Shown one piece after another: positions 21,220-60,358 of a stretch of DNA of 64,000 bases. The DNA lies in the IMG/VR virus record IMGVR_UViG_3300027782_000076; one strand, given 5' to 3'. This DNA is from an uncultured virus (IMG/VR IMGVR_UViG_3300027782_000076). Lineage: Duplodnaviria; Heunggongvirae; Uroviricota; Caudoviricetes; Crassvirales. How positions within the stretch are numbered: the first letter of the stretch is position 1; the number at the start of each line of letters is the position of its first letter. Below the pieces are notes generated by a model. It ran no database searches and was not told where the DNA came from. It was given only the letters and a program-made list of their open reading frames with translations. The translations under genes and the position numbers were made by a program.

Positions 21220-21975
21220 ATGATTAACGACGTAAGAAACACAGTCTTATCCGTGTTAAATAAAAATAACTACGGGTATATCTCTCCATCAGACTTTAAC
21301 TTGTACGCTAAAAATGCGCAAATGGAGATGTATGAGGAGTATTTTAGTAGTTACAATAAGACTATAAATGCTGAGAATGCTCGTTTGTCAGGTACAGATT
21401 ACGCTGATATTGAAAGTCCTTTAGCTGAAACTTTAGAAACTTTTATGCATACAGATACGCTTGTTCAAGTATCACCTACAACTAATAAATATTACTATCC
21501 ATCCTTAGTAACTACGGGGCATAACGCCTATATGGTTTCTAAGATAGAAATCTATAATTCATTAGTACCAAATAAGCGTTTAGGCGAAGCTGAAAAGGTT
21601 TCTGTTAGTAAGATTAATATGTTGGTAGATTCTATTTATACAACTCCTAATACCAAGTACCCTGCATATACATTGCTTGGAGATATTATTACGGTTTACC
21701 CTGAAACAATTAATGGGGTTAACTCTGTACAATGCACATACTTTAGTTATCCTGCAGACCCTAAATGGACTTACATTACTTTAGTAAATGGTGAGCCTGC
21801 GTTTGACCAATCACAACCTGACTACCAAGACTTTGAATTACCACTTGAAGATGGATATAAATTAGTTATGAAGATTCTTCAGTATTGTGGTATTTCTATT
21901 AGAGAGTCTGAAGTTGTAGCTTACGCAATAGGTCAAGAACAACACGAACAACCGACGTTCAGTCAACAACAATAA
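21220..21975 (+). CDS. Tail adaptor/ring-like virion protein
   Basis: GYISPSDFN..A..AQ N-terminus, Y..YP.DPKW, DFELP; position after the capsid genes. Confidence 0.55.
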   Translation: MINDVRNTVLSVLNKNNYGYISPSDFNLYAKNAQMEMYEEYFSSYNKTINAENARLSGTDYADIESPLAETLETFMHTDTLVQVSPTTNKYYYPSLVTTGHNAYMVSKIEIYNSLVPNKRLGEAEKVSVSKINMLVDSIYTTPNTKYPAYTLLGDIITVYPETINGVNSVQCTYFSYPADPKWTYITLVNGEPAFDQSQPDYQDFELPLEDGYKLVMKILQYCGISIRESEVVAYAIGQEQHEQPTFSQQQ

Positions 21976-38200: not shown

Positions 38201-41200
38201 TTACAATACTAAAGTAAAAGACTTTACTAAAAAGATTTTAAATTCTAAAATATCTAAGGATGATATTTTAGAATATTTTGATATAAAAAAAGATATTAAC
38301 AAATATTCTGTTGATTATGGGGAGAATGGTTTAGTAAGTATATTAAGAGAAAATTTTAATGAAAAAATTAGAAAAAATAATTTTACTGAAGATTTAAATG
38401 GTAAGGTAGCACAAGGGTCATACGATATAAATGAAAATACTGAAATATTACTTGATAATTTAAGTTCTACATTTGATGATTTAAAATTAATTAAAAATTT
38501 AAAGTTTATTACAGGTAATGTTAATCTTGAAGATTCTGAAATAATATCATTAGGAAATTTAGAATTTATTGGTGGTAATCTAAATCTTAGAAACTCTGAT
38601 TTAAAAGACTTAGGTAATTTAAAGACTATTGGTGGTTCTGTTTTATTTAAAGAATCTAAAATTAAATCGTTAGGAAATTTAGAAAGTATTGGTGCAAATG
38701 CAGATTTTAGTGACTCTAAGGTTGAATCATTAGGTAATTTAAAGAGTATTGGTGGAATTGCAGAATTTCAAGATTCTTTTATTGAAGACTTAGGTAATTT
38801 AGAAACTATTGGGCAACGTGGATATTTTTCACGTTCTGATGTAAAATCATTAGGTAAATTAAAGAGTATTGGTGATGGTGGATATTTTTGGGGTTCTAAT
38901 ATTAAATCATTAGGTAATTTAGAATTTATTGGTGGAGATATTGATATTGGAGATAGTAAAATTGAAGATTTAGGTAATTTAAAAACTATTAGTGGTAATG
39001 CTCGATTTGGGAACTCTCAAATTAAAAACTTAGGTAATTTAGAAACTATTGGTGGATACGCTGATTTTATACACTCTAATGTTGAAAATTTAGGTAAATT
39101 AAAGACTATTAATCGTGATGTTTATTTTAAAGAATCTAAAATTAAAGATTTAGGTAATTTAAAAACTATTGGTGGTAATGTTTATTTTAATGATTCTAAA
39201 ATTGAATCATTAGGCAATTTAGATAGTATTGGTCAAAATGCTTATTTTACTAACTCTAATTTTAAATCATTAAATAATTTAAAGAGTATTGGTGGAAATG
39301 CTTTTTTTTCAAATTCTTCTGTTGAAGACTTAGGTGATTTAAAAACTATTGGTATCGATGCTGACTTTGAAGATTCTAAAGTTAAATCGTTAGGAAATTT
39401 AAAAACTATTATTGGAAGTGCATATTTTCAAGATTCAAAAGTTGAATCATTAGGTAATTTAGAGAGTGTTGGTGTTAATATTAATATTACAAGGTCTAAT
39501 ATACCAAACTTAGGTAAATTAAAATTTATTGGAGGAATTTTATATAGTGATATTCCTGTATTAAATGCAGAGGCTCTTGATATTAAAGACAAACAATCAC
39601 CTACATTATCAAGGTCTCAATTAACAGACCCAATTACTAAGGTAGTAAGAGAGGCAAGAGCTCAAGGATTCTCTGAGGAAGCTATCAAATTATTCTTAGA
39701 GGGTGAGGGTGTATCTGCATCTGAAATTGAAAGTGCTATGTCTCCCGAGACTCCTGCATCTGCAAGAGTAAAAATATCTGAGAAGTTATCTGCAGGATTT
39801 GACAGGATGATGGGCGAGGTTGAGGGTATTATAGAGAAGTCTAAGAGGCGTAATGTAGACCAAGCAAAGATAACCGAGAACGTAATTAGTTACGTGATGG
39901 GCTCTAAAGTTTACGAGAACGCCACAGACGTACAACGCGAAAAAATTATCCGCGATATTAAGACTAAGTTTGGTATCAACCTAAAGTCTGCTCCAAGCGT
40001 AGCGAAATTATTTGGTACACTAAATGACGTTAAGAAGTTTACGCTAACCGAGAAGCAGCTTTATATTAAGCGACTTAAAGAATTACAAGAGGGAGCAAAG
40101 ACCGCAATTGCAGCTTGGAAACAGGCGTCTGTATTAATGGCTAAAGAGATTAAAGCACTTGTGAAGTCGGGTACTATTACAGCAAGACAAGAAGGTTTTA
40201 TTATAAGCAAGTTTGCTAAGGTAAATATGCTAAGCCCTAAATCTGTGTTAAGATTTGTTGACTATATGGGCAAAGTGTTTGCAGATGCAGAGTACGGTGC
40301 TCAGTTGGGAACAGCAAAGGGTCTTAGAAGTGATATTAAAAAGCTATCTAAAAATAAAGAGAAGAACGCAGACTTTAGAAAGTTAGCAGAAGAGTTTATA
40401 AATATTGACCCGGCAATGGTGGACGATATTTATGCGTACAATGAGATGGCTTCTCAGATTAAGAGTTCTGTAAAGGGTTCTACTTTAAGAGGAGAGAAAG
40501 TTAAATTCTCTGACGTTGTAAGTATTCAGGACGCCACAAGATATATTAGCGATACATTAAGAGTCCAAGATAAAAAAATCTTAGAAGAGCAAAGAGCAGA
40601 GGTACAGGAGCTGATGGGTATTGATGCATCAGATATGACCCCTGAACAATTGAGAGATTTATTAGAAGGCGAAGGAGAAGTTAAAGTAACAAAGTATAAC
40701 GAGTCTATTGTAAGAAGTCTTTTAGATAAAGCATTCAAGGCTTACTCAGGAGTAATAGACGAGATATTAAAGACGGGTTACGATGCGTTCTATACAGGAG
40801 AAAAAGTTGAGCTAACTAAAAATCAGAAGACTTTAATTAAACAATTTATGGATATGGACTTAACCGTTCTTACTCCTAAAGAATCTCTTCAGGCTGTGGA
40901 TGCCCTTGCTAACTTTATTCAAAACCAATCTACTGCGAAGATGGAGACAGTTGTCTCTGATTACACGGGAAGATTAAACGCGCGTAAATTAGCAGCATCA
41001 GGTGTTAAGGCTCAACCTTTAATGAAGTATAAGTCAAAAGGATTTGGTAAATTCTTAGCAGAACAAACTACAACGCTACCTATTCTATTTGAAAAAATGT
41101 TCAAAGGATTTAATAGGTCAGGTGAAGTAATGGATATGATGGGTGTTACTAAACTTATCAATGGTAAGTCTCTTGCGCAGAATATGTCAAATATAATTGT

Positions 41201-47833: not shown

Positions 47834-50249
47834 TGTTTAAAATATTTTGATTAACTGAATCTTGTTTCTTTTTAATTATTATCCAACGCCCTTGTTGGTC
47901 TCTTCCCTCTTCGGGCATTATGCCTTCTTTAAATATTCCGTAAGCAATTAACCACTTATAGAATCTTGTTCTGCTGATTGTCATCTTTGCCTTTGGTCCG
48001 TAGTCAGGATACTCATTGATAAAGTCTTGATACAAGTCTTGCTTGTACAATCTTCTTTCTGACTCAAGATGTCTGTATGTCTCTTGACCGTCAATCAATC
48101 CACACCACTCGATAAAGTCGTGACACGTTTCTGCTGACAGCTGACGAATCTTTAAGTTCACAAATTTAGATTTAACTAATCCCGTATTTAAAAACCCTTG
48201 CAGGCATCCAATCATATAATTGTCAAACTCGCACCAATCATCATCGCTCCAATCGCCAAACATTAACTTACCAAACTCATCAAGCGGAGTGTGGGTCTTA
48301 TTGTAATGCTGATGCAACTCAATCTCCCACTTCCTTCTTGCAAATGAATTACCTGAGCCCTTGATAGCATAGTTTGTTGTGATAGCTATCTTAGGTGACT
48401 TGCTGAATGGAATCTTAATCGCATCCTTGTTCTTTTTCTCAAGCGTTAGTCCTTCAGTTACAACTGAGAATAATCTTTCAAAGTCAAAGTATCTCTTCAC
48501 GTCATCGAAACATAGTATCTGCGTATCGGCTGAGACCAACTGATAGGCAAACGACCTCTCAAATGTAAACGACTTCCCATCTATAACGACTAACTTCTTC
48601 ATACAGCTAAGCGCATTCATAAACAATCCCTTCCCTGTACCACCCTCGGGGTTATCACTTATAACCTCGTCATTTAAAATTACTGCGGGGCAGAATGATA
48701 AATTCTTATGAGCGTGCAGTAGGAATCCTATTGTACTCTCCGTTGAACTTGTCCTTGCCTCGTCGTTACCACAAATGTTTGATATAAACTTCTTATAATC
48801 GCATCTGTCTGTTACTTCACAAATATTAAAATTCCTATCAATCACGTGGTCTTTCCAAACGTAACCGCCCAAGTCCAAGTAATCTATTGGTATAATTTCC
48901 TTCTTTGTAATCTTAACCGCACAATTCTTATAGTAAAGGTACGCAGAGTCTTTCGTATCTTCAATAAAATAAATATCAATTGTTGAAAGCATCGATAAAA
49001 ATTCTTCCTTAAAGAACCTCGTATTGTCCGCAAAGTAATTGTAGACGCTGATGTCGTCCAACTCGAATAGGTGCGCAAGCACGAAATCTTTAATCTCTTT
49101 CTCTGACGTGTGGTCGATTAGGTTATTGGTTACTTTCACAAATACGTAATTCTTACCACCCTCAGGGCAATACTTATAGAATCCCGAGTCCTCCAAGAAC
49201 TGCTTGAATAGAATATGAATTACCTTGATGACTCCCTTGTCGTTCTTGCTCCAAAAAGTTTGCTTCTCATTCTCCTCCTCAACCTTGTTCAGTACAGCTT
49301 CTATAACTTCGCTATCCAAATGGGAATCTTGTAACTGATAGCGAATCTCTTTTTTTGAAACACCTCTTCTAAGTTTTGCTTTGATTTGATTTACCTTCTC
49401 CTCGTCCTCGTAATACTTCGTACCAAAGTTTGTGGTATGAACGTATGCCGAGTCGATTGTTCTTTGAATCTCTGATATGGTAAAGCCTTCCGTTGCGTAT
49501 TGGTTTAGTACGTATGATGCAAGACTCTTGTTTACTCCAAAGTCATTGAACGCCATCGCAAGTATGAACGCGTTATGGTTTCTTTGTCCCTCTGACATTG
49601 GGTATTTTGTTGTCCACCACTTCACAAGTATTTCCACTATCTTGTTCTCGTCCGTGATTGGTATGGTTGGCTTGTCCTTGTACTTACTTACTTCGGTGTA
49701 CTCTGCCTCCTCGATGCTGTCCCATATTGACGAATTTTCGTTTATGTGCAAGAGCGGGTCGTAAGACTCGTAGCATACTCTTGATATGTTTTTACTTGTC
49801 TTGTCAAAGTATGGTGAATTTAAATACTTCTCAAGGGAATTAAAATAGTTTACGTGGTTCTCTGCGTCTGCGGGAATCTTTACTAATACTTTAAGTCCGT
49901 TACCCGACGGAGATATAAATACCGAGAACACATACTTGTTCTTTGATAGGTTCTCCTTATCCTGCAATAGCTCCTTCTGTTTAACGTATCCGTCAAAGTC
50001 CAAGCATATGAGTCCACTATGATTAATTAATGCGCTGTCGGCTCTCTTATTGAACTCTCCGCTAAAGCATATCGCGGGCAACTGCTTCTTCAATTCATTT
50101 CGCTCAGGTTTTCTTTTCTCTAAACGAATCTTCTTTACTAACTCCTTTGTGGCTCCGTTCTTTATTCTTTCAAGGATTATATGCACGTCACGATAGAACG
50201 GAGTGTCCGTGTCCCTGATATTTTGGAAGATTGTTATGTTATGTGTCAT
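47826..50249 (-). CDS. Primase-helicase (BT4734/VirE-N-like primase, PriCT, P-loop helicase)
   Basis: LKKQLP, SGLICLDFD, FISPSGNGLK, GQRN, GGTGKG, FDD. Confidence 0.85.
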   Translation of the reverse strand: MTHNITIFQNIRDTDTPFYRDVHIILERIKNGATKELVKKIRLEKRKPERNELKKQLPAICFSGEFNKRADSALINHSGLICLDFDGYVKQKELLQDKENLSKNKYVFSVFISPSGNGLKVLVKIPADAENHVNYFNSLEKYLNSPYFDKTSKNISRVCYESYDPLLHINENSSIWDSIEEAEYTEVSKYKDKPTIPITDENKIVEILVKWWTTKYPMSEGQRNHNAFILAMAFNDFGVNKSLASYVLNQYATEGFTISEIQRTIDSAYVHTTNFGTKYYEDEEKVNQIKAKLRRGVSKKEIRYQLQDSHLDSEVIEAVLNKVEEENEKQTFWSKNDKGVIKVIHILFKQFLEDSGFYKYCPEGGKNYVFVKVTNNLIDHTSEKEIKDFVLAHLFELDDISVYNYFADNTRFFKEEFLSMLSTIDIYFIEDTKDSAYLYYKNCAVKITKKEIIPIDYLDLGGYVWKDHVIDRNFNICEVTDRCDYKKFISNICGNDEARTSSTESTIGFLLHAHKNLSFCPAVILNDEVISDNPEGGTGKGLFMNALSCMKKLVVIDGKSFTFERSFAYQLVSADTQILCFDDVKRYFDFERLFSVVTEGLTLEKKNKDAIKIPFSKSPKIAITTNYAIKGSGNSFARRKWEIELHQHYNKTHTPLDEFGKLMFGDWSDDDWCEFDNYMIGCLQGFLNTGLVKSKFVNLKIRQLSAETCHDFIEWCGLIDGQETYRHLESERRLYKQDLYQDFINEYPDYGPKAKMTISRTRFYKWLIAYGIFKEGIMPEEGRDQQGRWIIIKKKQDSVNQNILNNE

Positions 50250-50423
50250 TGTACGTCGATTTAATGATAGATTTTGATTAGATAACTTGCTGACTACTAA
50301 TACTTATGTCGATAATGTCAATTTTAACTTTACTTTATAATTAATAAATAATAATAATAATAGAATATATATATATAGAGTATAGAGGATAATAATTTAG
50401 CATTTTCGTCACGGGTTAGAGCC

Positions 50424-50451
50424 AAAAAAAGGGGAGAGAATGCCCCTCCCC
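50424..50451 (-). terminator. Intrinsic terminator after ssb
   Basis: Minus strand GGGGAGGG/CTCTCCCC plus T7. Confidence 0.65.
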
Positions 50452-50467
50452 TCGCTTTTAATTGGTT

Positions 50468-50749
50468 TTAGAATGGTAAACCATCGCTCTCCTCTTCAAC
50501 AGCGGGAGCTGACTTTGCCGTTGGCGTTTCACCCTTGCCCTTAGGCTCGAATGTGTCCAACTCTAAGTAAGCGTTACCGCTTCTTGCGTACTTGGCGTTC
50601 AGGTTAACCCATCCACCTTTTTGATGCTTCTGCATAAATGCAATTGCATCGTCTACCTTAATTGATACTCTTCCGATAACAAAATCGGGTGCGTTCTCTT
50701 GACGTTTGAAAGAGAATCCGTCTGCAAAAATTTTTTCGTCTTGTGACAT
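50468..50749 (-). CDS. ssb: Single-stranded DNA-binding protein (small OB-fold type)
   Basis: Acidic tail EEESDGLPF; lies next to Sak/RecE. Confidence 0.65.
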   Translation of the reverse strand: MSQDEKIFADGFSFKRQENAPDFVIGRVSIKVDDAIAFMQKHQKGGWVNLNAKYARSGNAYLELDTFEPKGKGETPTAKSAPAVEEESDGLPF

Positions 50750-50769
50750 TTTACTTTTTTTTAAAATTT

Positions 50770-50819
50770 ACCTTAGTCTGTTTTAACCGACCACCAACCT
50801 CTAAGGTTAAGCTGATGAT
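50770..50819 (-). promoter_or_regulatory. H-type RNA pseudoknot in the ssb leader
   Basis: S1 AUCAUCAGCUU/AGGUUGGUGGU, L1 = A, S2 ACCUUAG/CUAAGGU. Confidence 0.6.
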
Positions 50820-50825
50820 AGGGCA

Positions 50826-51050
50826 TTATTTTTTATGACTATCATTATCATCTATAATTCCATTTACTATTTCCATTGTCATCTCATAAAGAAAGTAGGG
50901 TATAAATATAGTCATTACTATTACAAACCAAAAAAAGTTAAATAACAATACTGCAACTTTTAATGGTCTACTCCTATTATTTCTAACTAATCTAAAAGGG
51001 AATCCACCAATTTTTTCAATAATAAATCTTACTATATCTTTCTTTTTCAT
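50826..51050 (-). CDS. Small membrane protein
   Basis: One long hydrophobic segment; AT-rich. Confidence 0.5.
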   Translation of the reverse strand: MKKKDIVRFIIEKIGGFPFRLVRNNRSRPLKVAVLLFNFFWFVIVMTIFIPYFLYEMTMEIVNGIIDDNDSHKK

Positions 51051-51078
51051 ATGGGTCTAAGTGTCTTTGAAGACACAC

Positions 51079-51810
51079 CTATAGCGTGTCCTCGATGTAA
51101 TGATTTGCAATGTCGTCCGTGGGGTTTGCACCATAATACTTTTGGTATACCTCTACAGCCTTTAAAACTTTAGCCTCTCCGCCTCGTACGAACTCCTCAG
51201 TCGGTCTAAAGATACCAAGCTGAGCCGTCGCCTTGTCGACCACATAGAACACCAATGGCTTACCAAATAATGTTTGGTATATGTAGCACTGCGAATCGTA
51301 ATTGTAAGACCTCGCAGAATATTTAAACTTCTGAATATCTGCCGTAGTCTTTAGGTCAATAATAGAATCGTTAGTTAAAATATCCGCCTTGCCCTTCCAC
51401 TTCAAACCTGCAATCTCCGTGATTGCGGGAGTCTCAAACAAGTTACCCTCTCTATAAATCTCGTCATAGAATGTAATGTTACGCTTCATCACGCTCACCA
51501 ACCTCTCGATGTCCTCCTTCTCTTTTTTAAGCATACACATCTCCAAGTTATTCTCCTCGCAGTAATTCTTGTACTCCTTCGTCGTCCTTGTCGTCACGTC
51601 TACAAACGGAATTACTTGCGCTTTCTCAGGCTCTATCAGCAACTGATGAAAATATCTACCCTCCAATAAATTTTTACTATCGGGTCTCGACTTACCATAA
51701 CCCTGAGGATTATTAAGCAGAGTACCTATGTCCGAATTGGATAGGTACTGCTTGCCTAATACTCCGTAGTAGTTATTGTCATCTCGCAATTGTTCGATGA
51801 TGTCCATCAT
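51079..51810 (-). CDS. RecE/exonuclease VIII-like PD-(D/E)xK nuclease
   Basis: LSNS, G..FH..L.EP, KGKAD, IIDLKTT, Y..Q..IY. Confidence 0.85.
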   Translation of the reverse strand: MMDIIEQLRDDNNYYGVLGKQYLSNSDIGTLLNNPQGYGKSRPDSKNLLEGRYFHQLLIEPEKAQVIPFVDVTTRTTKEYKNYCEENNLEMCMLKKEKEDIERLVSVMKRNITFYDEIYREGNLFETPAITEIAGLKWKGKADILTNDSIIDLKTTADIQKFKYSARSYNYDSQCYIYQTLFGKPLVFYVVDKATAQLGIFRPTEEFVRGGEAKVLKAVEVYQKYYGANPTDDIANHYIEDTL

Positions 51811-52430
51811 TAAGAATTTACTAAATTAGCAATCTCCTTCTTAACTGCGGGACTCATTTTGTATTTTCTACTCAATTGTTTTCCAATTGCCTCAATACCA
51901 AGCGATTTATTTGCTTCGATGTACGAACAAACCTTAGCCCAACTTGGCGAGTCTTTCTTCAACTCTTCCAACTCTGTTGTTGGTGGTGAAACTACGGGAG
52001 GCGTAGTCGTTAGCTCAGGAACGTCCTCGCCCGTCCATAAACTTAAACCTAATCCGTGCATTGCGATAGCCTTAGCCGTCGAGCGCTGAATCGTTTTGTT
52101 TACGTCCATCGACGTTAATTTCCCAATTGGAATTGCATTGTTACGAAAGTCCATCACGGGCAGGTAGTCAATATGCTCGATGTCGTTCACGACGATACCA
52201 ACCTTAACGTAGGCGGTAGTTCCGTCGGTGAAATAATTTAAGCCCGTGTGGTCGTGCTCGTAAATTTTACGCTGAGCGTTTGGATAGTGGGTCTTTAATA
52301 AAGACCAAGCGTTTGCCCAAGACAAGTAGTCAAGGTTTCCCTTGCGCTCAATCTTGTCCTTGATGCTGATTGCTGATAATGTTTTGAATACCTCGTTGGT
52401 ACTCGAAACTGCTGTTGTGTTTGTCGCCAT
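51810..52430 (-). CDS. sak: Sak/Rad52-like single-strand annealing protein (DUF1071-like)
   Basis: YLSWANAW, LPVMD.RN, VNKTIQR..AKAIAMHGLGL.LW.GED. Confidence 0.85.
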   Translation of the reverse strand: MATNTTAVSSTNEVFKTLSAISIKDKIERKGNLDYLSWANAWSLLKTHYPNAQRKIYEHDHTGLNYFTDGTTAYVKVGIVVNDIEHIDYLPVMDFRNNAIPIGKLTSMDVNKTIQRSTAKAIAMHGLGLSLWTGEDVPELTTTPPVVSPPTTELEELKKDSPSWAKVCSYIEANKSLGIEAIGKQLSRKYKMSPAVKKEIANLVNS

Positions 52431-52441
52431 TTTGTTTTGGA

Positions 52442-52744
52442 TTAAATTGTGATTGAATTTTGAATGTTTTTTACTAATTTTTTGTAGTCGGCGTCTTGTT
52501 TCATCTTGTTTTCAAATGAAGATACGCCCCTATAGATTGTTGACCAACTTGTCTTGTAGCCATTCTCCTTCATATAGGTATTAATTGTTGCTAAGGGCAT
52601 CGGTCTTACTGAACATAGATAGTACAATAAGTGCCTTGCGTCTACATACTCCTGAACCTTTGATTTTTTAAATAGGTGCTTTCTCTCTATACGAAATGTC
52701 TGAACTACCTTCTCCACACACTCATTAAATATATCTTTTTTCAT
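52442..52744 (-). CDS. DnaA domain IV-like HTH protein
   Basis: L..KSK.Q.YVDARHLLYYL...WSTI pattern; own promoter TATATTTG at 52772-52779 (minus). Confidence 0.6.
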   Translation of the reverse strand: MKKDIFNECVEKVVQTFRIERKHLFKKSKVQEYVDARHLLYYLCSVRPMPLATINTYMKENGYKTSWSTIYRGVSSFENKMKQDADYKKLVKNIQNSITI

Positions 52745-52802
52745 TGTATTGTAATTAAATTTGATTGTTCACAAATATACACATTGTGCATTGATTATGC
52801 AA

Positions 52803-53174
52803 TTATTTGGAAATAAACTTCCTTGCGACTCTGTCCCACAACTCCTCCTCTACCAATTCGAGCGACTTATCTTTGATGATGCTATTCATCTCGTCCGATT
52901 GTTCTGCGTCGTTAATCTCGAGCAGGAAATCTCCCGTGATTAAGATTTGGATGTAGAAACCGCCAACGTACCTTACCACGTCCCTGCAATCGGGTCTGAG
53001 CCTTGCGCTTGGGTTGTAGTGTACAAACAACTCTCTCGGTGTTATTCTGCCCGTGTTAATAAACAAATCAAAGCTCATCTCTCCGTCTTGCATCTTCTGC
53101 AGGGTTTGGATGTACAATTTATCGGGCTTGTCCTTTAGTTTTTCCTTCAGGATTTCTTCTGCTACTATGGTCAT
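52803..53174 (-). CDS. Hypothetical protein
   Basis: ORF in the early minus-strand array. Confidence 0.6.
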   Translation of the reverse strand: MTIVAEEILKEKLKDKPDKLYIQTLQKMQDGEMSFDLFINTGRITPRELFVHYNPSARLRPDCRDVVRYVGGFYIQILITGDFLLEINDAEQSDEMNSIIKDKSLELVEEELWDRVARKFISK

Positions 53175-53205
53175 CTTATTTTTACTAAATTGTTAAACAA
53201 TATTT

Positions 53206-53604
53206 TTATGCGTAAACTACTTCGCCCAATGCAATGTATTGGAATATAACGTCCGAACTTGTGGCGTCTCCGTGTTCGTTTATTTCGTTTAGGATAGCCC
53301 AACTATTATCGTCGGTAGCACACTTTTGCAGTCTTTCACTCATCGTAGTCATACTGATTGTTCCAACTGCGTCCTCGTCCTCCTCCTCTTCGATGTCGTG
53401 TATCTCTACGTCAATGTTGTGGTCGTACACTGCTGAGAATAGAGCCTGACTAAATGGTATACTCCTATCAGGCACAACTTCTCTGACTTTCTTAACGGCT
53501 TTACCTCCGATAAGATACCAATAATTACTCCCGCCCTCTAATGCGGTTACAAAGATGTCTTCCAAGACTTCTCTTGTCAATTCAATGTTAATAGATACTT
53601 TCAT
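53206..53604 (-). CDS. Hypothetical phage protein
   Basis: TALEGGSNYW and DA..SDVIFQ...GEVVY motifs. Confidence 0.7.
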   Translation of the reverse strand: MKVSINIELTREVLEDIFVTALEGGSNYWYLIGGKAVKKVREVVPDRSIPFSQALFSAVYDHNIDVEIHDIEEEEDEDAVGTISMTTMSERLQKCATDDNSWAILNEINEHGDATSSDVIFQYIALGEVVYA

Positions 53605-53789
53605 ATTTGGTTTATTATAAATTTAACTTTTGATTTTGTGTTTGGGTTTAACTCTAATTGCCCTATCGAACACCACCCATTTGCCCATTCGAAATTGTTT
53701 TCTCCTATCCAAGTTATCTTGCGGAGAACTTTGCCGTGTTCGTTTTGTAAATAAAACAAATCACCTTTGTAAATTCCTTTCGTCTTCAT
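53601..53789 (-). CDS. Hypothetical protein
   Basis: Coupled ORF. Confidence 0.55.
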   Translation of the reverse strand: MKTKGIYKGDLFYLQNEHGKVLRKITWIGENNFEWANGWCSIGQLELNPNTKSKVKFIINQI

Positions 53790-53790
53790 T

Positions 53791-53994
53791 TTATTTTATA
53801 GTTAAATGACCTACTTCTATTCCGATGTCTTCTCCGTTTTCCAACGCTTGATTTATTTCAAAAAAGTCTTCGACTAAACTTTCGCTATCGTCATCGTGTA
53901 AAACATATAATGAAAATAGTCCGCTTTGATAAACTTCTTTGGCTATGTCAGTTACTAAGAACCACACAAAGCCTTGTACAACTTTTGCTCTCAT
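53791..53994 (-). CDS. Hypothetical protein
   Basis: Closely packed ORF. Confidence 0.55.
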   Translation of the reverse strand: MRAKVVQGFVWFLVTDIAKEVYQSGLFSLYVLHDDDSESLVEDFFEINQALENGEDIGIEVGHLTIK

Positions 53995-53997
53995 AAT

Positions 53998-54324
53998 TTA
54001 GTTTGTTATTGTTTTAGTTATTAAACTCTCGATAATTTCAAACTTCCCGTCCTGAAAGTAAATATCAACGGGAAAGTCAATGTCAGGTAAGCACAATGTC
54101 TGCTCACCGAATAGGTTCATATTCACTGCCCCAAAATCCTCGATAAAGTAATCCTCGATTTCGCTCCAATGGATGAGCAACTCGATGTCCACCTCGTTAA
54201 TTTTTATCTCCACCGAATATATCAATGCAGACTTGTTGTTGACCTCGAACACTTCGAGGTCGATTGTTGGGAACTTGTTCTCTTGTACCCAAGAACTCAG
54301 CTCCGATAATTTAAATTTTTTCAT
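53998..54324 (-). CDS. Hypothetical acidic protein
   Basis: Start moved to ATG 54324 (A-rich leader); the track start at 54360 lies inside the ribozyme. Confidence 0.6.
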   Translation of the reverse strand: MKKFKLSELSSWVQENKFPTIDLEVFEVNNKSALIYSVEIKINEVDIELLIHWSEIEDYFIEDFGAVNMNLFGEQTLCLPDIDFPVDIYFQDGKFEIIESLITKTITN

Positions 54325-54349
54325 TTGTTTGTTTGTTTTGGTTTTTAAA

Positions 54350-54403
54350 TCCCGTTTCATCCTTTTGGAATCATCAGTCGAGACAACTCATCTCGATACG
54401 GGA
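54350..54403 (-). ncRNA. Type III hammerhead ribozyme HH1
   Basis: UCCCG-UA/UCGAGA-UGAGUUG-UCUCGA-CUGAUGA-UUCC-AAAA-GGAU-GAAA-CGGGA. Confidence 0.85.
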
Positions 54404-54571
54404 GAGTGTCCTTAAAGACACTCCCGTTTTTTATGGTCTAAACCTGACGACTTCGGTCTCGGTGAACCAACTACAAAAACCCCCGTAATAATAGTGTGCG
54501 AACCCCATCGAACCTCAGTCGTTATAATAAAGCACTAAGATAGCATATACATTGCACATATCAAAATTAAA

Positions 54572-54772
54572 TTAATCTTTGTAGCTTGGCTTGATAGCAA
54601 AGCACTCAATCATCTCGTCGTGATAGGCGTCAATATTATTGACCTTAGTGAACTCGTTCGCTTGTTGTTTGGTCTCAAACTCAGCCACCAATCTTTCACT
54701 CTTGCACCTATATATTTTGGCGTAATTCGTCGGTACTTCGACCACGCTCCACACAATTTTCTTATTCATCAC
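54572..54772 (-). CDS. Hypothetical protein
   Basis: Early-array ORF. Confidence 0.55.
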   Translation of the reverse strand: MMNKKIVWSVVEVPTNYAKIYRCKSERLVAEFETKQQANEFTKVNNIDAYHDEMIECFAIKPSYKD

Positions 54773-54965
54773 AGGCCTCCTTTACTATTTCAAATACTCT
54801 GACGCCGTTAACTTCCCTGAACTCAATCGGGTACAACTTGATTAACATTTCTAATTTGTCCTTGAAGAATCCTCGTCTGCTCTTAGGCAGATAAATCAAT
54901 CTGTCAATCACCTCTTGCGTCAACTCCCTGCGCTCTTGGTACACATCTACTTTTTGCTCTTGCAT
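54762..54965 (-). CDS. Hypothetical protein
   Basis: Early-array ORF. Confidence 0.55.
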   Translation of the reverse strand: MQEQKVDVYQERRELTQEVIDRLIYLPKSRRGFFKDKLEMLIKLYPIEFREVNGVRVFEIVKEACDE

Positions 54966-54969
54966 AACT

Positions 54970-55119
54970 TTAGTTTTTAAGTTTAATTTTAATCATATCC
55001 AAAATAAAATTGTCAATGTTCTGCTGTCCCCAACTGCGGGCACCCTCGAACGAATCAAAGTCCTTACGTGCTACCTTGTAGGCGTTGTCTTTGTTTAGGT
55101 ATTCAATGTAAATCTCCAT
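54970..55119 (-). CDS. Hypothetical protein, 49 aa (not in ORF track)
   Basis: MEIYIEYLNKD...KLKN* fills the gap exactly. Confidence 0.55.
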   Translation of the reverse strand: MEIYIEYLNKDNAYKVARKDFDSFEGARSWGQQNIDNFILDMIKIKLKN

Positions 55120-55120
55120 C

Positions 55121-55309
55121 TTACTTGTTGTTTAGGGTTTCGTCTAATCTATTACACCCGTACGCAACTGCGCCTAAGGATAAAAACATTGTACACATTA
55201 GCACCACCCATTCGAACGGGTTTAAGCTATCTAAAATACTCATCAGGTAGACTATCAGACCTGAATAAGCTAAGCCTCCTAAGGCTAATAAAATTATTGT
55301 TTTTTTCAT
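55121..55309 (-). CDS. Small two-TM membrane protein
   Basis: Two hydrophobic segments. Confidence 0.55.
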   Translation of the reverse strand: MKKTIILLALGGLAYSGLIVYLMSILDSLNPFEWVVLMCTMFLSLGAVAYGCNRLDETLNNK

Positions 55310-55310
55310 C

Positions 55311-55607
55311 TTACTTTCTTTCTAATTGATAAAGTTTTGTCTCAAATTCTTTGGTCATTTCCTCAACGTCGTAAACCTTTTCGTTGTCGTCGTCCTCGTA
55401 ATAATAAATGGGGACACTTATGCTATCGTCCGACGTTTCGTAGCTATCGAATTGATACTTATCGGTGTTAATCATATCGCAGTTTATAGACGATATAAAC
55501 CACATTACCGACCACACCATTCCATTGTCTTCCGCCCATTGTAGGCGCTCTTCCTTTGTTTGCTCGACCATATCGAATGGCGATGCAAAGATTCTTGTTT
55601 CTTTCAT
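55311..55607 (-). CDS. Hypothetical protein
   Basis: A-rich leader; VPIYY...KVYDVEEM..EF. Confidence 0.6.
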   Translation of the reverse strand: MKETRIFASPFDMVEQTKEERLQWAEDNGMVWSVMWFISSINCDMINTDKYQFDSYETSDDSISVPIYYYEDDDNEKVYDVEEMTKEFETKLYQLERK

Positions 55608-55640
55608 TTTTTGTTTGGTTTAATTAAGCACTATTGCTTG

Positions 55641-55684
55641 GGCTATGCAAGGGACTCGAACCCTTGTTTATACCATACATAGCC
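55641..55684 (-). ncRNA. tRNA-like minihelix (acceptor stem plus T-arm, no anticodon arm)
   Basis: GGCUAUGU-AUGGUAUAAAC-AAGGG-UUCGAGU-CCCUU-GCAUAGCC. Confidence 0.6.
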
Positions 55685-55691
55685 AATCTAA

Positions 55692-55931
55692 TCAATCGTA
55701 GTCGGGGAAAAAATCTTCCCAACCATCTGCAATTCCGTTTGTGTTCATTCTGCGCATTGGCTCCTGTCTCTGCTCCTCCTGTTCGCCTTGCACATCGATA
55801 AAATAAATCGTGTCAGGAAATAAATCCTTTAAACTATCCATCTCGATTACCGCCTCGTCGTACGATAAATCACTTGCCTCGATTTGTGGGTACCCGTCCT
55901 CGTCCACGCCACATACTCTGAACTTGTCCAT
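55692..55931 (-). CDS. Hypothetical acidic protein
   Basis: Start moved to ATG 55931 (MDKFRV). Confidence 0.55.
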   Translation of the reverse strand: MDKFRVCGVDEDGYPQIEASDLSYDEAVIEMDSLKDLFPDTIYFIDVQGEQEEQRQEPMRRMNTNGIADGWEDFFPDYD

Positions 55932-55936
55932 ATCCG

Positions 55937-56101
55937 TTAGTATTTGTCCGTTAAACACTCTCTACGCTCCACCTTAGACCCGTCAATCGTTAGCGCCATC
56001 TTAACTGCGTCGGAACACTTTTTGAACGTGTACATCTGCACAAACTTTCCTAAGCATAGGCAGTCCACTGCCCACAACTTAGCCATCTTTAATTTTCTCA
56101 T
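55937..56101 (-). CDS. Hypothetical protein, 54 aa (not in ORF track)
   Basis: MRKLKMAKLWAVDC...TDKY* fills the gap. Confidence 0.5.
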   Translation of the reverse strand: MRKLKMAKLWAVDCLCLGKFVQMYTFKKCSDAVKMALTIDGSKVERRECLTDKY

Positions 56102-56105
56102 TTTT

Positions 56106-56591
56106 TTAGTTTAATTTAATTTTTTCCTCTAATAATATATCTAAGACTTCCAACTCGGACTCGTATTCCACGTCTCTCCACGAATAGACGTCGGTCTCCT
56201 TGTCGTAGTCTTTTATCCAATAGATGTCGGTCTCCTTGTCGTGGTCGATTCTATCAAAGTCCTCACCCTCTAAGTTCACTACGGACATACCGCCAACGTC
56301 ACCGATAACGCAACCAAATATTTTACCATCGGTCTCAACGTAGTCGTAGCGATAGTCTAACCCGAATTTTAATGCAAGTTGGTCGACCTGATAAATATCA
56401 GGAGTACCCTCAGTAATGAAATCGACAACACCATCTTCAATAGTCAAATCAAAGCAATACTTTTCTTGTTTGCCGTCCATCAAATAAATACTATCGTATC
56501 TATTTTTGGTCGTTCGAGATTTAATAAATTCTAAGCATTCTGCGACTCTATCTCCTTGAAATAAAATCGTATTGTAGCAATTGTTCGCCAT
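56106..56591 (-). CDS. Hypothetical protein (MxNxCxN start, possibly YubB/ferredoxin-like)
   Basis: MANNCYNTI N-terminus; Y.E.D...G. Confidence 0.55.
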   Translation of the reverse strand: MANNCYNTILFQGDRVAECLEFIKSRTTKNRYDSIYLMDGKQEKYCFDLTIEDGVVDFITEGTPDIYQVDQLALKFGLDYRYDYVETDGKIFGCVIGDVGGMSVVNLEGEDFDRIDHDKETDIYWIKDYDKETDVYSWRDVEYESELEVLDILLEEKIKLN

Positions 56592-56597
56592 TTTTTT

Positions 56598-57215
56598 TTA
56601 ATTATTTAAGTGGTTATTATTAATCAGGTAAAAATTATCGGTCACCTCTTGGTTATCCGTGTCAAACTCCTCGATAAGCAAGTCGTAGTTTAACTTATGG
56701 GTGTTGCAAAACTTTAAGTAGTTTTTCAACCCTTGCACGTCGTCCAATTCAAAATGCTTATCAGGCAGAATGTTACTTGGTCTCTTAGGGTCGTCGCACC
56801 TTATCAGGTAGTACATCTCGTATTGATTGCCGTAGTCGTTTATCCACTCGGTAAGCAATTCCCTTGTAACGTAACAGGCATCGGGCGTACCATCGAACAA
56901 TCTTAGCTTGCCGTTCGAATCGTGAGCCATACGCCCTTCCTGCCTCTTATGCAAAATCATTTCGTCTAATACGCTTTGTAGCTCGTGCTTAGATACCTTA
57001 GTTGGCTCGGGGGTATCAATTAGATACGCCCAAGATAACCACACGCTAAGACCATCGTTGTGGTCTCTTCTCGCAATGTACTTCGCATCGTCTTCCGACT
57101 CAGCCTGTACAATACATTTAACCTTCATTAACTCAGGCTCAGCCTTGTCAATGTCTCTCGATGGGTTAACCACTAACTGCATCGAAACTTCGTACTCTTT
57201 TAATTTCTTGTCCAT
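56598..57215 (-). CDS. Hypothetical protein
   Basis: 205-aa early ORF. Confidence 0.65.
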   Translation of the reverse strand: MDKKLKEYEVSMQLVVNPSRDIDKAEPELMKVKCIVQAESEDDAKYIARRDHNDGLSVWLSWAYLIDTPEPTKVSKHELQSVLDEMILHKRQEGRMAHDSNGKLRLFDGTPDACYVTRELLTEWINDYGNQYEMYYLIRCDDPKRPSNILPDKHFELDDVQGLKNYLKFCNTHKLNYDLLIEEFDTDNQEVTDNFYLINNNHLNN

Positions 57216-57228
57216 TTTTTTGGTCTCC

Positions 57229-57537
57229 TTATTTTTGATTTAATTTAATTTTTGTCCATAGAATTTCACAACCGCAACAATTATACACCTCGATTCCGAT
57301 GTACCCGTCTTTCTCTTTGTATTTAAAGTAATCTCGGCTACGACCTACGCAGTAAACACCTTTGTGACCTATTGCGTCAGCCTTGTCAATTTGTATCATC
57401 TCGGTATCTTGGAAATACTCGATGCCGTCAAACATTCCATTGAACCTTGACTTTGTTTCGACGAATAATTCGTCTGCATTTTTAATGAACGACTTTAGCG
57501 TCGCCATCGTGATTTTTTTGTTTTTTAAATTTTCCAT
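57229..57537 (-). CDS. Hypothetical phage protein
   Basis: KITMATLKSFI...SRFNGM.D...GVYCVG.SRDYF...VYNCCG. Confidence 0.7.
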   Translation of the reverse strand: MENLKNKKITMATLKSFIKNADELFVETKSRFNGMFDGIEYFQDTEMIQIDKADAIGHKGVYCVGRSRDYFKYKEKDGYIGIEVYNCCGCEILWTKIKLNQK

Positions 57538-57560
57538 TTTTTTATGGGTTTAAGGGGTTT

Positions 57561-57611
57561 GCCGTTTCGTCCTTTTGGACTCATCAGGTGGGACACTCAT
57601 CCCACGACGTC
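57561..57611 (-). ncRNA. Type III hammerhead ribozyme HH2
   Basis: GACGUC/GUGGGA-UGAGUG-UCCCAC-CUGAUGA-GUCC-AAAA-GGAC-GAAA-CGGC; fully canonical core. Confidence 0.9.
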
Positions 57612-57638
57612 AGGAGCGCCTGAGCGCCCCTGATTTGA

Positions 57639-58043
57639 TTACTCTATCGGGTGAACTTTAATATCATTCTCAACCAATTGCTGAAACCAATTTTTCAACT
57701 CTAAATCAGCGACGTATATCCACGTCGACACCTCACGGGATAGGGCGTTGGTGCTACGCGCCCTGACGTTGCCCTTGCGATTCAATGTTACTTCGTAATT
57801 ACCGATTATTACTTTAAGTTTCTCTTGCTGATGTTTGTTAGCGTGGTTCGGATTGTTAAAGTAAAGTAAATGGTATTTGTACTCCTCAATTTGGTATTGA
57901 TAGGTATATAAATTCTCACCTACTTCGGCAAAGTTTTCTAAGAAATTTGCGTTCAATAATTTTTGCAAATCTTTAACCTTGTACTCCAAATATTTAATTT
58001 GGTTTGTTACTTCTGATGCGATGTCGTTGATGTCTCTTCTCAT
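57639..58043 (-). CDS. Hypothetical protein
   Basis: Early ORF with A-rich leader. Confidence 0.6.
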   Translation of the reverse strand: MRRDINDIASEVTNQIKYLEYKVKDLQKLLNANFLENFAEVGENLYTYQYQIEEYKYHLLYFNNPNHANKHQQEKLKVIIGNYEVTLNRKGNVRARSTNALSREVSTWIYVADLELKNWFQQLVENDIKVHPIE

Positions 58044-58087
58044 TTTTTTTTGGTTTAAATTGTTTCTGATTAAATTGATTAAATTGA

Positions 58088-58369
58088 TTATAATTCCTTA
58101 ACTAAATACTTGTCGTACAACTCTTCCTTGTTCGGTTGTCCTGATACCCAATTGATGTACAGGTAAGGGTCGACGCCATTGCTTAGGATGTGCTTAGCCG
58201 TTAGGATTTTGATGTCCTTAAAGTCGTAATCCATATCCTCGATATCGTACTTCGAGTAGTACAAAATATCTTCCTTGTCCGTTCCCTTGTAGTCCCATCC
58301 ATTTACGATGATGAACGTGCCTTTAAGCACTGCAAAGTGCGTGTACTTTTTTGTTGCTTTGTGTTTCAT
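58088..58369 (-). CDS. Hypothetical protein (first early gene)
   Basis: YTHFAV.K...IVNGWDY; downstream of the candidate early promoter. Confidence 0.65.
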   Translation of the reverse strand: MKHKATKKYTHFAVLKGTFIIVNGWDYKGTDKEDILYYSKYDIEDMDYDFKDIKILTAKHILSNGVDPYLYINWVSGQPNKEELYDKYLVKEL

Positions 58370-58407
58370 TTTTATAGGGGTTTAACAATGCTACCTGCAT
58401 TGGATGT

Positions 58408-58438
58408 GCAATTTACATGCAATACTATTAATATCAAA
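58408..58438 (-). promoter_or_regulatory. Candidate early promoter
   Basis: TTTG-19nt-TAAATTGC, a near match to the Bacteroidota -33/-7 consensus. Confidence 0.45.
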
Positions 58439-58891
58439 ATATTATTTACTTTTTTATTCACTTATTTTAAAAACTCAATGTTTATGCGGGTTTCAGGGGC
58501 GCTCAAGTGATCAAAATTTGTAGTGTTTTGGGTGGTGCAGTAATAACCGCCTTTCTGCGTCTACCTGATAGTTTTTTTGTCCTGTGTTCACATTCATATT
58601 ACCTGAGAGCAGTGCCTTGCGATGTGTCGAATGCGATGCGCAGAGCCACACAAATCACCTGCACCCAATCGACTCTACCTGAGTGCTGCGAACCACTCAT
58701 TCAGGCTCAGGATGCCCACAGGAAAACGCCAAAAAATCCGAGGCGCTCGAGGGAAATCCTGACCCCCCCCCTGCAAAAAAAAATCGTTTCCGTCGCGGGG
58801 GTCGGCTCGCCAAACCGCTATATAGCCCAAACACTACTATCATCTGATATTTTTTTATATCTTTGTATTATTAAACCTTATTATATATCAT

Positions 58892-59119
58892 ATGGATAAT
58901 TTTAAAAACAGTGCGAACCTAAGTGGTTTGACAGTAAAGAACGGTAGATTGATTAACGACAGACCTAATATGGGTATTGCCGGAGTAACTGCTGCTTGTA
59001 TTGCAAGAAAAGAATTAAAGAAGGCTAATAAGATTGAGATGTATGCTGAGGCGGTTGCTATGGGTAACAGAAGGTCTGAAATGTCTGAGGGTCCTGAATT
59101 TGTAAAACTTTTAAAATAA
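58892..59119 (+). CDS. Hypothetical protein
   Basis: Promoter TATCTTTG at 58858-58865; GL.VKNGRLIN. Confidence 0.65.
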   Translation: MDNFKNSANLSGLTVKNGRLINDRPNMGIAGVTAACIARKELKKANKIEMYAEAVAMGNRRSEMSEGPEFVKLLK

Positions 59120-59125
59120 ATAGAA

Positions 59126-59362
59126 ATGGCAAAGCAAACATTAAAGTCAAACGTAAGTCAGAGATTCTCTGATAAAAAAGCAGAGTACACAAGAGATTCT
59201 ACAAAAATGGAAAACTCTATGAAAACAATGGATAGTATTGGCAAGGCAAATAAAAATGCAATGTTATTAAGTCCTCAGGATTCTGATAAATATAAAGCGG
59301 CAAAAGATACTTTCTATGCAGCTGCAGGTAGAACAACCCAAGCAATGAAAAAGAAGAAGTAA
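59126..59362 (+). CDS. Small basic protein
   Basis: K/M-rich ORF. Confidence 0.55.
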   Translation: MAKQTLKSNVSQRFSDKKAEYTRDSTKMENSMKTMDSIGKANKNAMLLSPQDSDKYKAAKDTFYAAAGRTTQAMKKKK

Positions 59363-59505
59363 TGATGGGCGGTAAGGACAGAGGCGATAGTGCCTTTGGT
59401 GTAAAGAAATACTTTCAAGGAGACAAGGGTAAGTCTATATTAGCTGCTAAGGCTGCTAAGGCTAAGAACATAGTCCAATTGAAGAAGCAAGAGTTGATAA
59501 AATAG
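59362..59505 (+). CDS. Small basic protein, 47 aa (not in ORF track)
   Basis: TAATG-coupled; MMGGKDRGDSAF...ELIK*. Confidence 0.45.
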   Translation: MMGGKDRGDSAFGVKKYFQGDKGKSILAAKAAKAKNIVQLKKQELIK

Positions 59506-59537
59506 TATTTGTTTGTTATAGTTATATGTTTTGGTTT

Positions 59538-59570
59538 AGGGGAGTCTTTAGTTAGGCTCCTCTTTTTTTT
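59538..59570 (+). terminator. Intrinsic terminator
   Basis: AGGGGAGTCT/AGGCTCCTCT plus T run. Confidence 0.75.
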
Positions 59571-59770
59571 ATCAAAGTAATAACAATGTTAGAATATCGA
59601 CATTAAGATGTTAGATTTTACGACGATTATTGATAGTTAACTAATTGATTATTAATATACTGTCGATAATGTCAATTTTAAAGTTAGTTTCTAATAGAAA
59701 ATAAATATATAAAAGGAGGAAATATATATATATATATAGGGAGATTAAAAAACGACATAACGACATAAAT

Positions 59771-60358
59771 ATGAAAAACACGCTTGGATGGGCTTTAGCA
59801 ATAGTTTTTGCTATTGCATTACTTAGAAATGGTTGTCACAATGGTGCCAATAATCTAACATTAGACACTGTAAAAATTGACACGCAGTACGTTGAGCTGC
59901 CTGCGCAGACTAAATACATTACTAAATTAGTCCCTAAAACCATAATTAAAAATGATACCATAATTAATACGGTGGTGGATACATCGTACGTAGTAGGAGA
60001 CTATTATGCTACAAAGACCTACGAAGATAGTATAGAGTTTACGGGAGTTAAATTATTTTTAACCGAGCGCATTTCAGAGAATTCTATCCAATCAAGATTG
60101 GCATCACTCAAGATGACACAGGCTCAGATTACTAAGACCAATTATATGATTCATCGTAAGCAGGCATCAATTGGTGTAGGTGGTTCGGTACTGTTTGGTA
60201 AAAAGGGAGTGACCCTATCTGTCGACGGAGTATTTACCCCGGCTTATCAGCCGCACTTTTACTTTGTGGGGTATGATTTAGTGACGGGACAAATGAGAGT
60301 AGGAGCAGCCTTTAAGTTTAATTTGAAGGGCTCAGAGAAGTTTGAACCTGCGCTCTAA
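59771..60358 (+). CDS. Secreted/lipoprotein-like protein (possible spanin component)
   Basis: N-terminal hydrophobic helix with Cys; DT-rich linker; beta-strand C-terminus ending in aromatic residues. Confidence 0.55.
   Translation: MKNTLGWALAIVFAIALLRNGCHNGANNLTLDTVKIDTQYVELPAQTKYITKLVPKTIIKNDTIINTVVDTSYVVGDYYATKTYEDSIEFTGVKLFLTERISENSIQSRLASLKMTQAQITKTNYMIHRKQASIGVGGSVLFGKKGVTLSVDGVFTPAYQPHFYFVGYDLVTGQMRVGAAFKFNLKGSEKFEPAL

Follow-up and report, generated by a model that had tools for sequence, protein, structure and literature searches.

The DNA analysed here (the window) is a 64,000-nucleotide stretch from an uncultured virus, IMG/VR record IMGVR_UViG_3300027782_000076. It carries a run of 32 minus-strand ORFs, from 58369 down to 43736, in which helicase, primase-like, exonuclease and Sak-like annealing proteins are encoded and are preceded by small ORFs without a family. 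The plus strand carries the structural genes, including ORFs of 1569 and 3825 aa. Neither of these giant ORFs, 22915-27624 (+) and 32262-43739 (+), respectively, matched a Pfam family. The proteins of the window match those of phages of Flavobacterium, Polaribacter, Cellulophaga, and other Bacteroidota, and the DNA occurs in freshwater metagenomes, two runs containing at least half of its words and one of them being perhaps its source. The closest GenBank phage is MW202828.1 (60.85 kb, circular), with a primase-like protein that is 80% identical in amino acids. A GroEL is encoded by the phage at 60806-62422 (+) (PHROG 5725, E 4e-131), and MW202828.1 has both GroEL and GroES. The element under study, HH2, lies near the start of the minus-strand run, and a second copy, HH1, lies further down. 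The features of the two loci are as follows.

57639..58043 (-): gene preceding HH2, 134 aa, no family match; it comes second in a leftward operon with its start near 58369 (ORF list)
57610..57633 (-): 10-bp G+C-rich hairpin with loop UCAG, directly 5' of HH2 (folds)
57559..57613 (-): HH2, predicted type III hammerhead ribozyme (Rfam envelope; RF00008, 42.4 bits, E 7.1e-6; model R1, described below, 71.2 bits, E 1.6e-17)
57605..57606 (-): predicted self-cleavage site, 3' of C17 (57606) (Rfam alignment and sequence)
57588..57605 (-): stem I (57605-57600 / 57593-57588) with loop I UGAGUG (57599-57594) (sequence, Rfam alignment and fold)
57569..57580 (-): stem II, GUCC/GGAC, with G10.1-C11.1 and loop II AAAA (sequence and Rfam alignment)
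57538..57558 (-): A-rich leader without Shine-Dalgarno motif, from the ribozyme to the ATG (intergenic sequences)
57229..57537 (-): downstream gene, 102 aa, no family match (ORF list; homologues in L077 and L078)
54404..54423 (-): hairpin that abuts HH1 on its 5' side, holding the 16-nt palindrome GTGTC-N6-GACAC (folds)
54349..54404 (-): HH1, predicted type III hammerhead with a GUA triplet, U10.1-U11.1 and a predicted cut at 54397/54396 (RF00008, 34.2 bits, E 0.0015; R1, 72.4 bits)

The gap between the upstream and the downstream gene of HH2 is 101 nt long and is taken up by the hairpin, then the hammerhead, then the A-rich leader. No ORF of 40 aa or more covers HH2 on either strand, and neither PHROGs nor Pfam gave a family for the ORFs that flank HH2 or HH1. 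Leaders of the UUAAACC..AAAAAUG type are common to several of the early genes. A leader that is A-rich and lacks a Shine-Dalgarno motif fits what we presume to be a Bacteroidota host. Scans of 50000-60000 for sigma-70-type promoters (32 versus 29.6) and for terminators (9 versus 6.3) stayed at chance level.

Read on the minus strand and aligned to the core of the RF00008 model, HH2 has CUGAUGA at 57587-57581 and GAAA at 57568-57565, and all of the conserved C3 U4 G5 A6 N7 G8 A9 and G12 A13 A14 are present (GAA, 57568-57566). The triplet GUC (57608-57606) agrees with the NUH rule, H17 not being G, and A57565 pairs with U57607 as A15.1-U16.1. Stem I joins GUGGGA (57605-57600) to UCCCAC (57593-57588), stem II opens with the standard pair G57580-C57569 at 10.1-11.1, and stem III consists of A-U, C-G and G-C, a G/A mismatch (57562/57610), then C-G and A-U. 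Loops cap stems I and II and stem III is open, which is the type III topology (Rfam structure line 1-54). The original prediction, made from the letters of this DNA, had described a canonical core, a GUC triplet, and a stem II closed by G-C, and each of these bases was found on the minus strand. The cut that it placed between 57606 and 57605 follows from the position of the GUC, with the A of the start codon (57537) 68 nt downstream of G57605, and its short stem III with one mismatch corresponds to the three pairs, the G/A, and the two further pairs given above. Its extent for the element, 57561-57611, is two bases narrower on each side than the Rfam envelope.

The whole window was searched on both strands against 4227 Rfam families, and RF00008 aligned to HH2 end to end (model positions 1-54 of 54). 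At the gathering threshold there were 0 matches in the whole window. The gathering cut-off of RF00008 is 48.5 bits, and HH2 (42.4) and HH1 (34.2) both fall below it and match only under E-value thresholds; because of these scores neither copy would get an automatic annotation. HH2 shares with the RF00008 type III hammerhead (clan CL00010) the full catalytic core, the NUH triplet, A15.1-U16.1, the open stem III, and the loop-capped stems I and II, and it differs in a loop II of 4 nt, where the model consensus has 8, and in a short stem III with a mismatch. These two differences are suggested as the source of its score shortfall. The bare pattern CTGATGA-N6-30-GAAA was found 4 times in the window versus 1.1 expected, so that it is weak by itself and it is the full structure that counts. 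Over the whole window the E-values of the full matches were 7.1e-6 for HH2 and 0.0015 for HH1, and HH2 is beyond chance. A functionless chance resemblance would be in line with a score under the gathering cut-off, but we give that reading next to no credence in view of the E-value (7e-6 in the window), the 71 bits reached with an independent subfamily model, the compensatory changes seen in orthologues, and the second copy in the same operon.

HH1 and HH2 lie on the same strand, 3209 nt apart, within the one 32-ORF run, and nine small ORFs stand between them. HH1 contains at 54349-54404 the stem I (UCGAGA/UCUCGA), the loop I (UGAGUUG), and the loop II (AAAA) that had been ascribed to it. As had also been claimed, the letters of stem I differ between the two copies, yet stem I is paired in both and both loops are kept. 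In nearest-neighbour folding, the minimum free energy (MFE) structure of HH2 is not a hammerhead: GAUG of the core is taken up in a pairing with the CGUC at the cut site. Stems I and II do form in this structure, and the full hammerhead fold lies 2.6 kcal/mol above it. The hammerhead fold of HH1 is only 0.1 kcal/mol off the MFE, and the comparison has to be read with energy models that leave out tertiary contacts.

IMG/VR was scanned with the stem II/loop II word of the window, with positions 10.1 and 11.1 left free, and 73 loci were obtained, which together with the window's two copies and one GenBank phage gave 76 pattern matches. Of the 76, 71 are laid out as type III, with a fully paired stem I immediately upstream; the remaining 5 fail the stem I filter (at least 4 bp), and at least 2 of these (L045, L036) read as a type I layout. 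Among 59 distinct sequences, 91.6% of the pairing cells were paired versus 68.9% in shuffled controls (0 of 500 reached the real value), counts that overstate independence because the sequences are related. When partners were slid by 1-3 columns, 35-47% of the cells of these 59 sequences paired. Stem I, for which a pairing of at least 4 bp had been filtered before the count, was paired in 100%, with changes on both sides at 6 of 6 pairs. The inner four pairs of stem III were 98-100% paired and two of them covary, and altogether 4 of the 6 stem III pairs are supported by compensatory changes. Of the 55 positions, 24 were set in advance by the window-derived search pattern (stem II/loop II), and they count for nothing in this respect. 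The original prediction had argued from HH1 and HH2 that the pairing is kept by selection, and the changes on both sides of every stem I pair in the 59 sequences bear this out far beyond those two copies.

A second scan was anchored on loop I and the core, with stem II freed, and gave 60 distinct sequences. Stem I was paired in 59 of them, the inner part of stem II covaries across at least 8 pair sets, and loop II is 4 nt long and A-rich in 58, mostly AAAA or NAAA. The first two positions of loop I keep U (invariant) and G (at least 90%). The conservation of the two loops fits a tertiary contact between loop I and loop II. A covariance model, R1, was built from the 59 sequences, none of them from the window. 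It recovered both HH2 and HH1 at the scores listed above and gave no third hit in the window at E up to 10.

The subfamily, as defined here, has a 6-bp stem I, a UGNGUG loop I, a 4-bp stem II, and a NAAA loop II. Its word occurred at least 127 times in cellular genomes, overwhelmingly in Patescibacteria MAGs (Saccharibacteria, Paceibacteria, and others), and among the matches listed 127 of 128 distinct genome sequences are of type III. As judged from these sequence comparisons, HH2 and HH1 belong to a large subfamily of viral contigs and Patescibacteria MAGs. The literature search gave no paper that joins hammerhead with Patescibacteria terms among the matches listed. Five IMG/VR contigs (L212, L215, L238, L248, and L259) carry two subfamily hammerheads about 300 nt apart on one strand, a spacing large enough to bracket one small gene.

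The triplet and the 10.1/11.1 pair are associated in the subfamily. In viral contigs (L004-L076), GUC with G-C was found 26 times, GUA or GUU with U-U 27 times, and mixed combinations 5 times; in genomes (loci from L083 on), among the matches listed, U-U was found 8 times, each time together with GUA and not once with GUC, all of these counts coming from related sequences. The association may reflect common descent or a paired tuning of speed. Across all matches 10.1/11.1 is G/C or U/U, the exceptions being A/C (L036) and U/C (one genome locus), so that U-U, as in HH1, looks like a discrete alternative state and not like decay. U10.1-U11.1 is a recognised hammerhead variant in the available text of PMC3088659.

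The hairpin directly upstream of HH2 adjoins its stem III without a gap (57610/57609). The 3' arm of this hairpin shares bases with the outer portion of stem III, and the 5' product would therefore end in the hairpin plus 4 nt. For the whole family, the 45 nt that would end the 5' product were folded, with control windows drawn from the same loci. A hairpin of -12 kcal/mol or lower that ends 0-7 nt from the cut was present in 42 of 59 members versus 36 of 590 control windows. Hairpin loops in the family include UUCG, GAAA, and GCAA, and G-U pairs occur on the sense strand, which suggests that selection acts on the RNA. We propose that the hairpin could give the upstream fragment a protected 3' end and could aid product release.

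The protein encoded downstream of HH2 has two relatives in IMG/VR, L078 (82% identity) and L077 (90%). L078, on a 63-kb contig, has its hammerhead (42.6 bits) in the same place as HH2. It differs from HH2 in having GUA for GUC, double changes at three pairs of stem I, a C at the variable core position 7, a loop II of UAAA, and a perfect 5-bp stem III. In L077 coding sequence was found at the HH2 slot, and no ribozyme. L056 and L033 have the 3' flank in common with HH2 and different stem I sequences. The protein downstream of HH1 has four relatives, each preceded by an HH1-like ribozyme at a distance about 250 nt greater than in the window; one of them, L082, has G10.1-C11.1 where HH1, L079, and L080 have U-U. 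On the contigs behind L078/L082, L056/L079, and L033/L010, an HH2-like copy lies upstream of an HH1-like copy on one strand, the two being about 2.5 to 4.3 kb apart. No hammerhead was found in MW202828.1 by Rfam at E up to 1, and the best R1 hit there reached 12.7 bits (E 0.82). Since MW202828.1 and L077 do without the element, the hammerhead is dispensable. A near-identity search with 53500-58500 against GenBank phages gave no match.

These comparisons bear on whether HH2 is a weakened or decaying copy of an active hammerhead, one that would cut slowly or not at all and would matter little or serve as a structured spacer. The A/G of HH2 at 16.4/15.4 is the sole non-pair at that column among the 59 distinct sequences, the L078 orthologue has its stem III perfect, the active fold lies 2.6 kcal/mol above the MFE, and the close relatives just named lack the element. 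Once the upstream hairpin has formed, stem III is left with 3 bp. However, the core, the GUC, G10.1-C11.1, stems I and II, and both loops of HH2 are all perfect, and weak stems III are very common in natural hammerheads, as far as the available text of Perreault et al. 2011 (PMC3088659) goes. The hairpin can also stack directly on the 3-bp stem III, because nothing separates 57610 from 57609, and an opening at the hairpin base would still allow the two outer stem III pairs. We therefore regard decay as unlikely. By structure, family covariation, and orthologous conservation, HH2 is, on the evidence of its sequence, a type III hammerhead.

The palindrome held by the HH1 hairpin is repeated in the window. 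GTGTC-N6-GACAC occurs 6 times versus 0.06 expected (at 12923, 20338, 34674, 45308, 51061, and 54406; 16 nt each), one copy being the HH1 hairpin, one a terminator-like hairpin after ORF 18876-20321, and three lying inside ORFs. The early operon of MW202828.1 (43745-55154, L002) has 14 exact copies of one 16-nt palindrome of the GTGTC..GACAC type, mostly 20-35 nt before the ATG of small genes, the same slot that the hairpin and hammerhead occupy in the window phage. The palindrome may serve in processing, in protein binding, or as an element of a promoter. A bare hairpin in the slots of a relative that is free of ribozymes might mean that such punctuation marks are interchangeable.

Several known systems resemble the one described here. 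Hundreds of bacterial hammerheads lie near prophage genes, according to the available text of Perreault et al. 2011 (PMC3088659), and where they are clustered they flank prophage genes; for these a processing of long phage transcripts into shorter mRNAs was suggested. In the same text, clustered hammerheads cut transcripts of about 2 kb in vitro, and one triple set cuts in E. coli. The likeness to those clusters, as the available text describes them, lies in same-strand ribozymes placed in the gaps that separate small genes, most of them unknown, on a polycistronic phage transcript, in weak stems III, and in U10.1-U11.1 as in HH1. The difference lies in the phage, here a freshwater podophage with proteins like those of Flavobacteriia phages, and a hairpin abutting upstream was not found described for the clusters in the available text of PMC3088659. 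Both PMC3088659 and a 2019 review (PMC6765202) propose processing by phage hammerheads, the available text of neither containing in vivo proof for a phage, and the purpose of such ribozymes still needs defining according to the part of the review that is available.

The closest homologues by word are in Pseudomonas phages. Blastn with HH1 showed that 71 records of Pseudomonas phages (Bruynoghevirus, LUZ24/PaP3 group) contain its 24-nt word, just before orf01. In phiIBB-PAA2 (KF856712) the hammerhead lies at 1091-1137; Rfam at E up to 1 does not report it, though it can be read in the sequence. The Bruynoghevirus copy equals HH1 in the 24-nt core, stem II, loop II, U10.1-U11.1, and the GUA triplet, and is like it in the 6-bp stem I, the UGNGUG-type loop, and the place just before a start codon. 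HH2 differs from it in G10.1-C11.1 and GUC, the comparison being with relatives of PaP3 and not with PaP3 itself. The start codon of the Pseudomonas phages falls within the 3' strand of stem III, and their ribozyme comes after early promoters, whereas HH2 is placed inside an operon. Main texts that combine 'hammerhead' and 'LUZ24' were not found, LUZ24 appearing in the supplement of PMC3088659; the available part of that supplement lists hammerheads of the phages LUZ24 and PaP3 and gives 'type3 HH at end of genome' of PaP3 as assayed.

The position of the phiIBB-PAA2 ribozyme, downstream of annotated early promoters and directly before orf01, raises the possibility that HH2 trims a primary transcript. 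A promoter would then lie just upstream, with the hairpin maybe part of it, and removal of the triphosphate 5' end would leave an mRNA with a 5'-OH. This would agree with a halovirus transcript whose 5' end lies within 3 nt of a hammerhead cut (PMC3088659, available text), and with the palindromes of MW202828.1, which precede most of its small early genes as a promoter might. We nevertheless consider it quite unlikely for HH2. The gap before HH2 is only 101 nt long and is mostly filled by the hairpin and the ribozyme, and no sigma-70-type site was found in 57538-57640 (-) by a scan that does not cover Bacteroidota-type or phage promoters. Moreover, the hairpin loops and the sense-strand G-U pairs point to selection on an RNA and not on a DNA site.

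The reading that we prefer, and hold to be likely, is that HH2 is a genuine self-cleaving type III hammerhead that processes the leftward early operon RNA of a freshwater podophage of about 60 kb. HH2 would be transcribed within a long minus-strand early operon RNA and, once folded, the 2'-OH of C57606 would attack the adjacent phosphate, as expected from the chemistry of the family. The polycistronic RNA would thus be cut between its second gene (57639-58043) and its third (57229-57537). At the end of the upstream piece, the 10-bp G+C-rich hairpin would be followed by a tail of 4 nt that carries a 2',3'-cyclic phosphate. The downstream piece would start at G57605 with a 5'-OH, and after it would come the stem I hairpin, the unstructured A-rich leader and then the ATG. 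A like cut would be made by HH1 3.2 kb further down. If one transcript spans both HH2 and HH1, as we infer, the pair probably cuts a long early message into pieces, and a cut at HH1 besides that at HH2 would release the nine small ORFs as one unit. Neighbouring cistrons would likely obtain separate stabilities, and the leader would be insulated from upstream sequence.

Insulators of the RiboJ type offer a parallel, as in these a hammerhead in the 5' leader removes the upstream RNA and frees the translation of the next gene from its upstream context. RiboJ was engineered from a satellite RNA ribozyme with an added downstream hairpin. HH2 is natural and its hairpin is upstream of the predicted cut; the likeness would lie in the way of working, that of a leader-cutting hammerhead.

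Being on the same strand and 3209 nt apart, HH2 and HH1 could also cut out the intervening 3.2 kb in one piece, to be circularised by a host ligase or spliced out. In favour of this, RtcB-type ligases join ends of the two kinds that hammerhead cuts produce, 5'-OH and 2',3'-cyclic phosphate. Against this, clustered prophage hammerheads gave no circular or spliced products (PMC3088659, available text). The segment contains nine ordinary ORFs, and the spacing of the ribozymes varies in relatives, from about 2.5 to 4.3 kb. We find excision very improbable and return to processing of the operon RNA by HH2 and HH1.

A more specific form of processing can be put forward tentatively, as possible rather than likely: the unit under selection would not be the hammerhead alone but a strong hairpin with a hammerhead directly after it, the two kinds of hammerhead standing in a graded order and the punctuation marks being interchangeable. 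The polymerase would read on, and the ribozyme would cut 0-7 nt behind the hairpin, making a 3' end without a terminator. The upstream mRNA would then end like a terminated transcript, and the downstream mRNA would have a 5'-OH and a clean leader. The order along the early operon would be fixed, the G10.1-C11.1 copy coming first and the copy with GUA and U10.1-U11.1, presumably slower, second. If this is true, the fixed order of the two grades could set different processing rates for successive blocks of genes. Compared with the available text of PMC3088659, the module of hairpin plus ribozyme and the ordered pair of a canonical and a U-U copy are what would go beyond the known; in other respects HH2 appears to join a well-known kind.

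Taken alone, HH2 is one more phage hammerhead, and the gain would be mainly the annotation of an intergenic RNA. The lineage, with two grades in a conserved order and each abutted by a hairpin, makes a compact test case. It offers natural comparisons, namely L077 and MW202828.1 without the ribozyme and L082 with G-C where the window phage has U-U, and such comparisons could show whether ribozymes set the ends and the stabilities of mRNAs.

Two other RNA-like matches were noted in the window. CRISPR-DR6 gave a weak Rfam match at 21350-21416 (+) (34.2 bits versus a gathering value of 39, E 0.0019), with a 41-nt insertion; it lies inside ORF 21220-21975 and is probably due to chance. In the gap before ORF 55311-55607, a tRNA-like minihelix occupies 55639-55684 (-), with a fold z-score of -2.2. 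It combines an acceptor-like stem of 7 bp with a T-arm whose loop is UUCGAGU; CA comes next, and there is no anticodon arm. ARAGORN found no tRNA in the window, the minihelix was called neither by ARAGORN nor by Rfam, and viral contigs contained no identical copy of its T-arm/acceptor stretch. A further RNA-processing mark of the same operon is one possible role for it.
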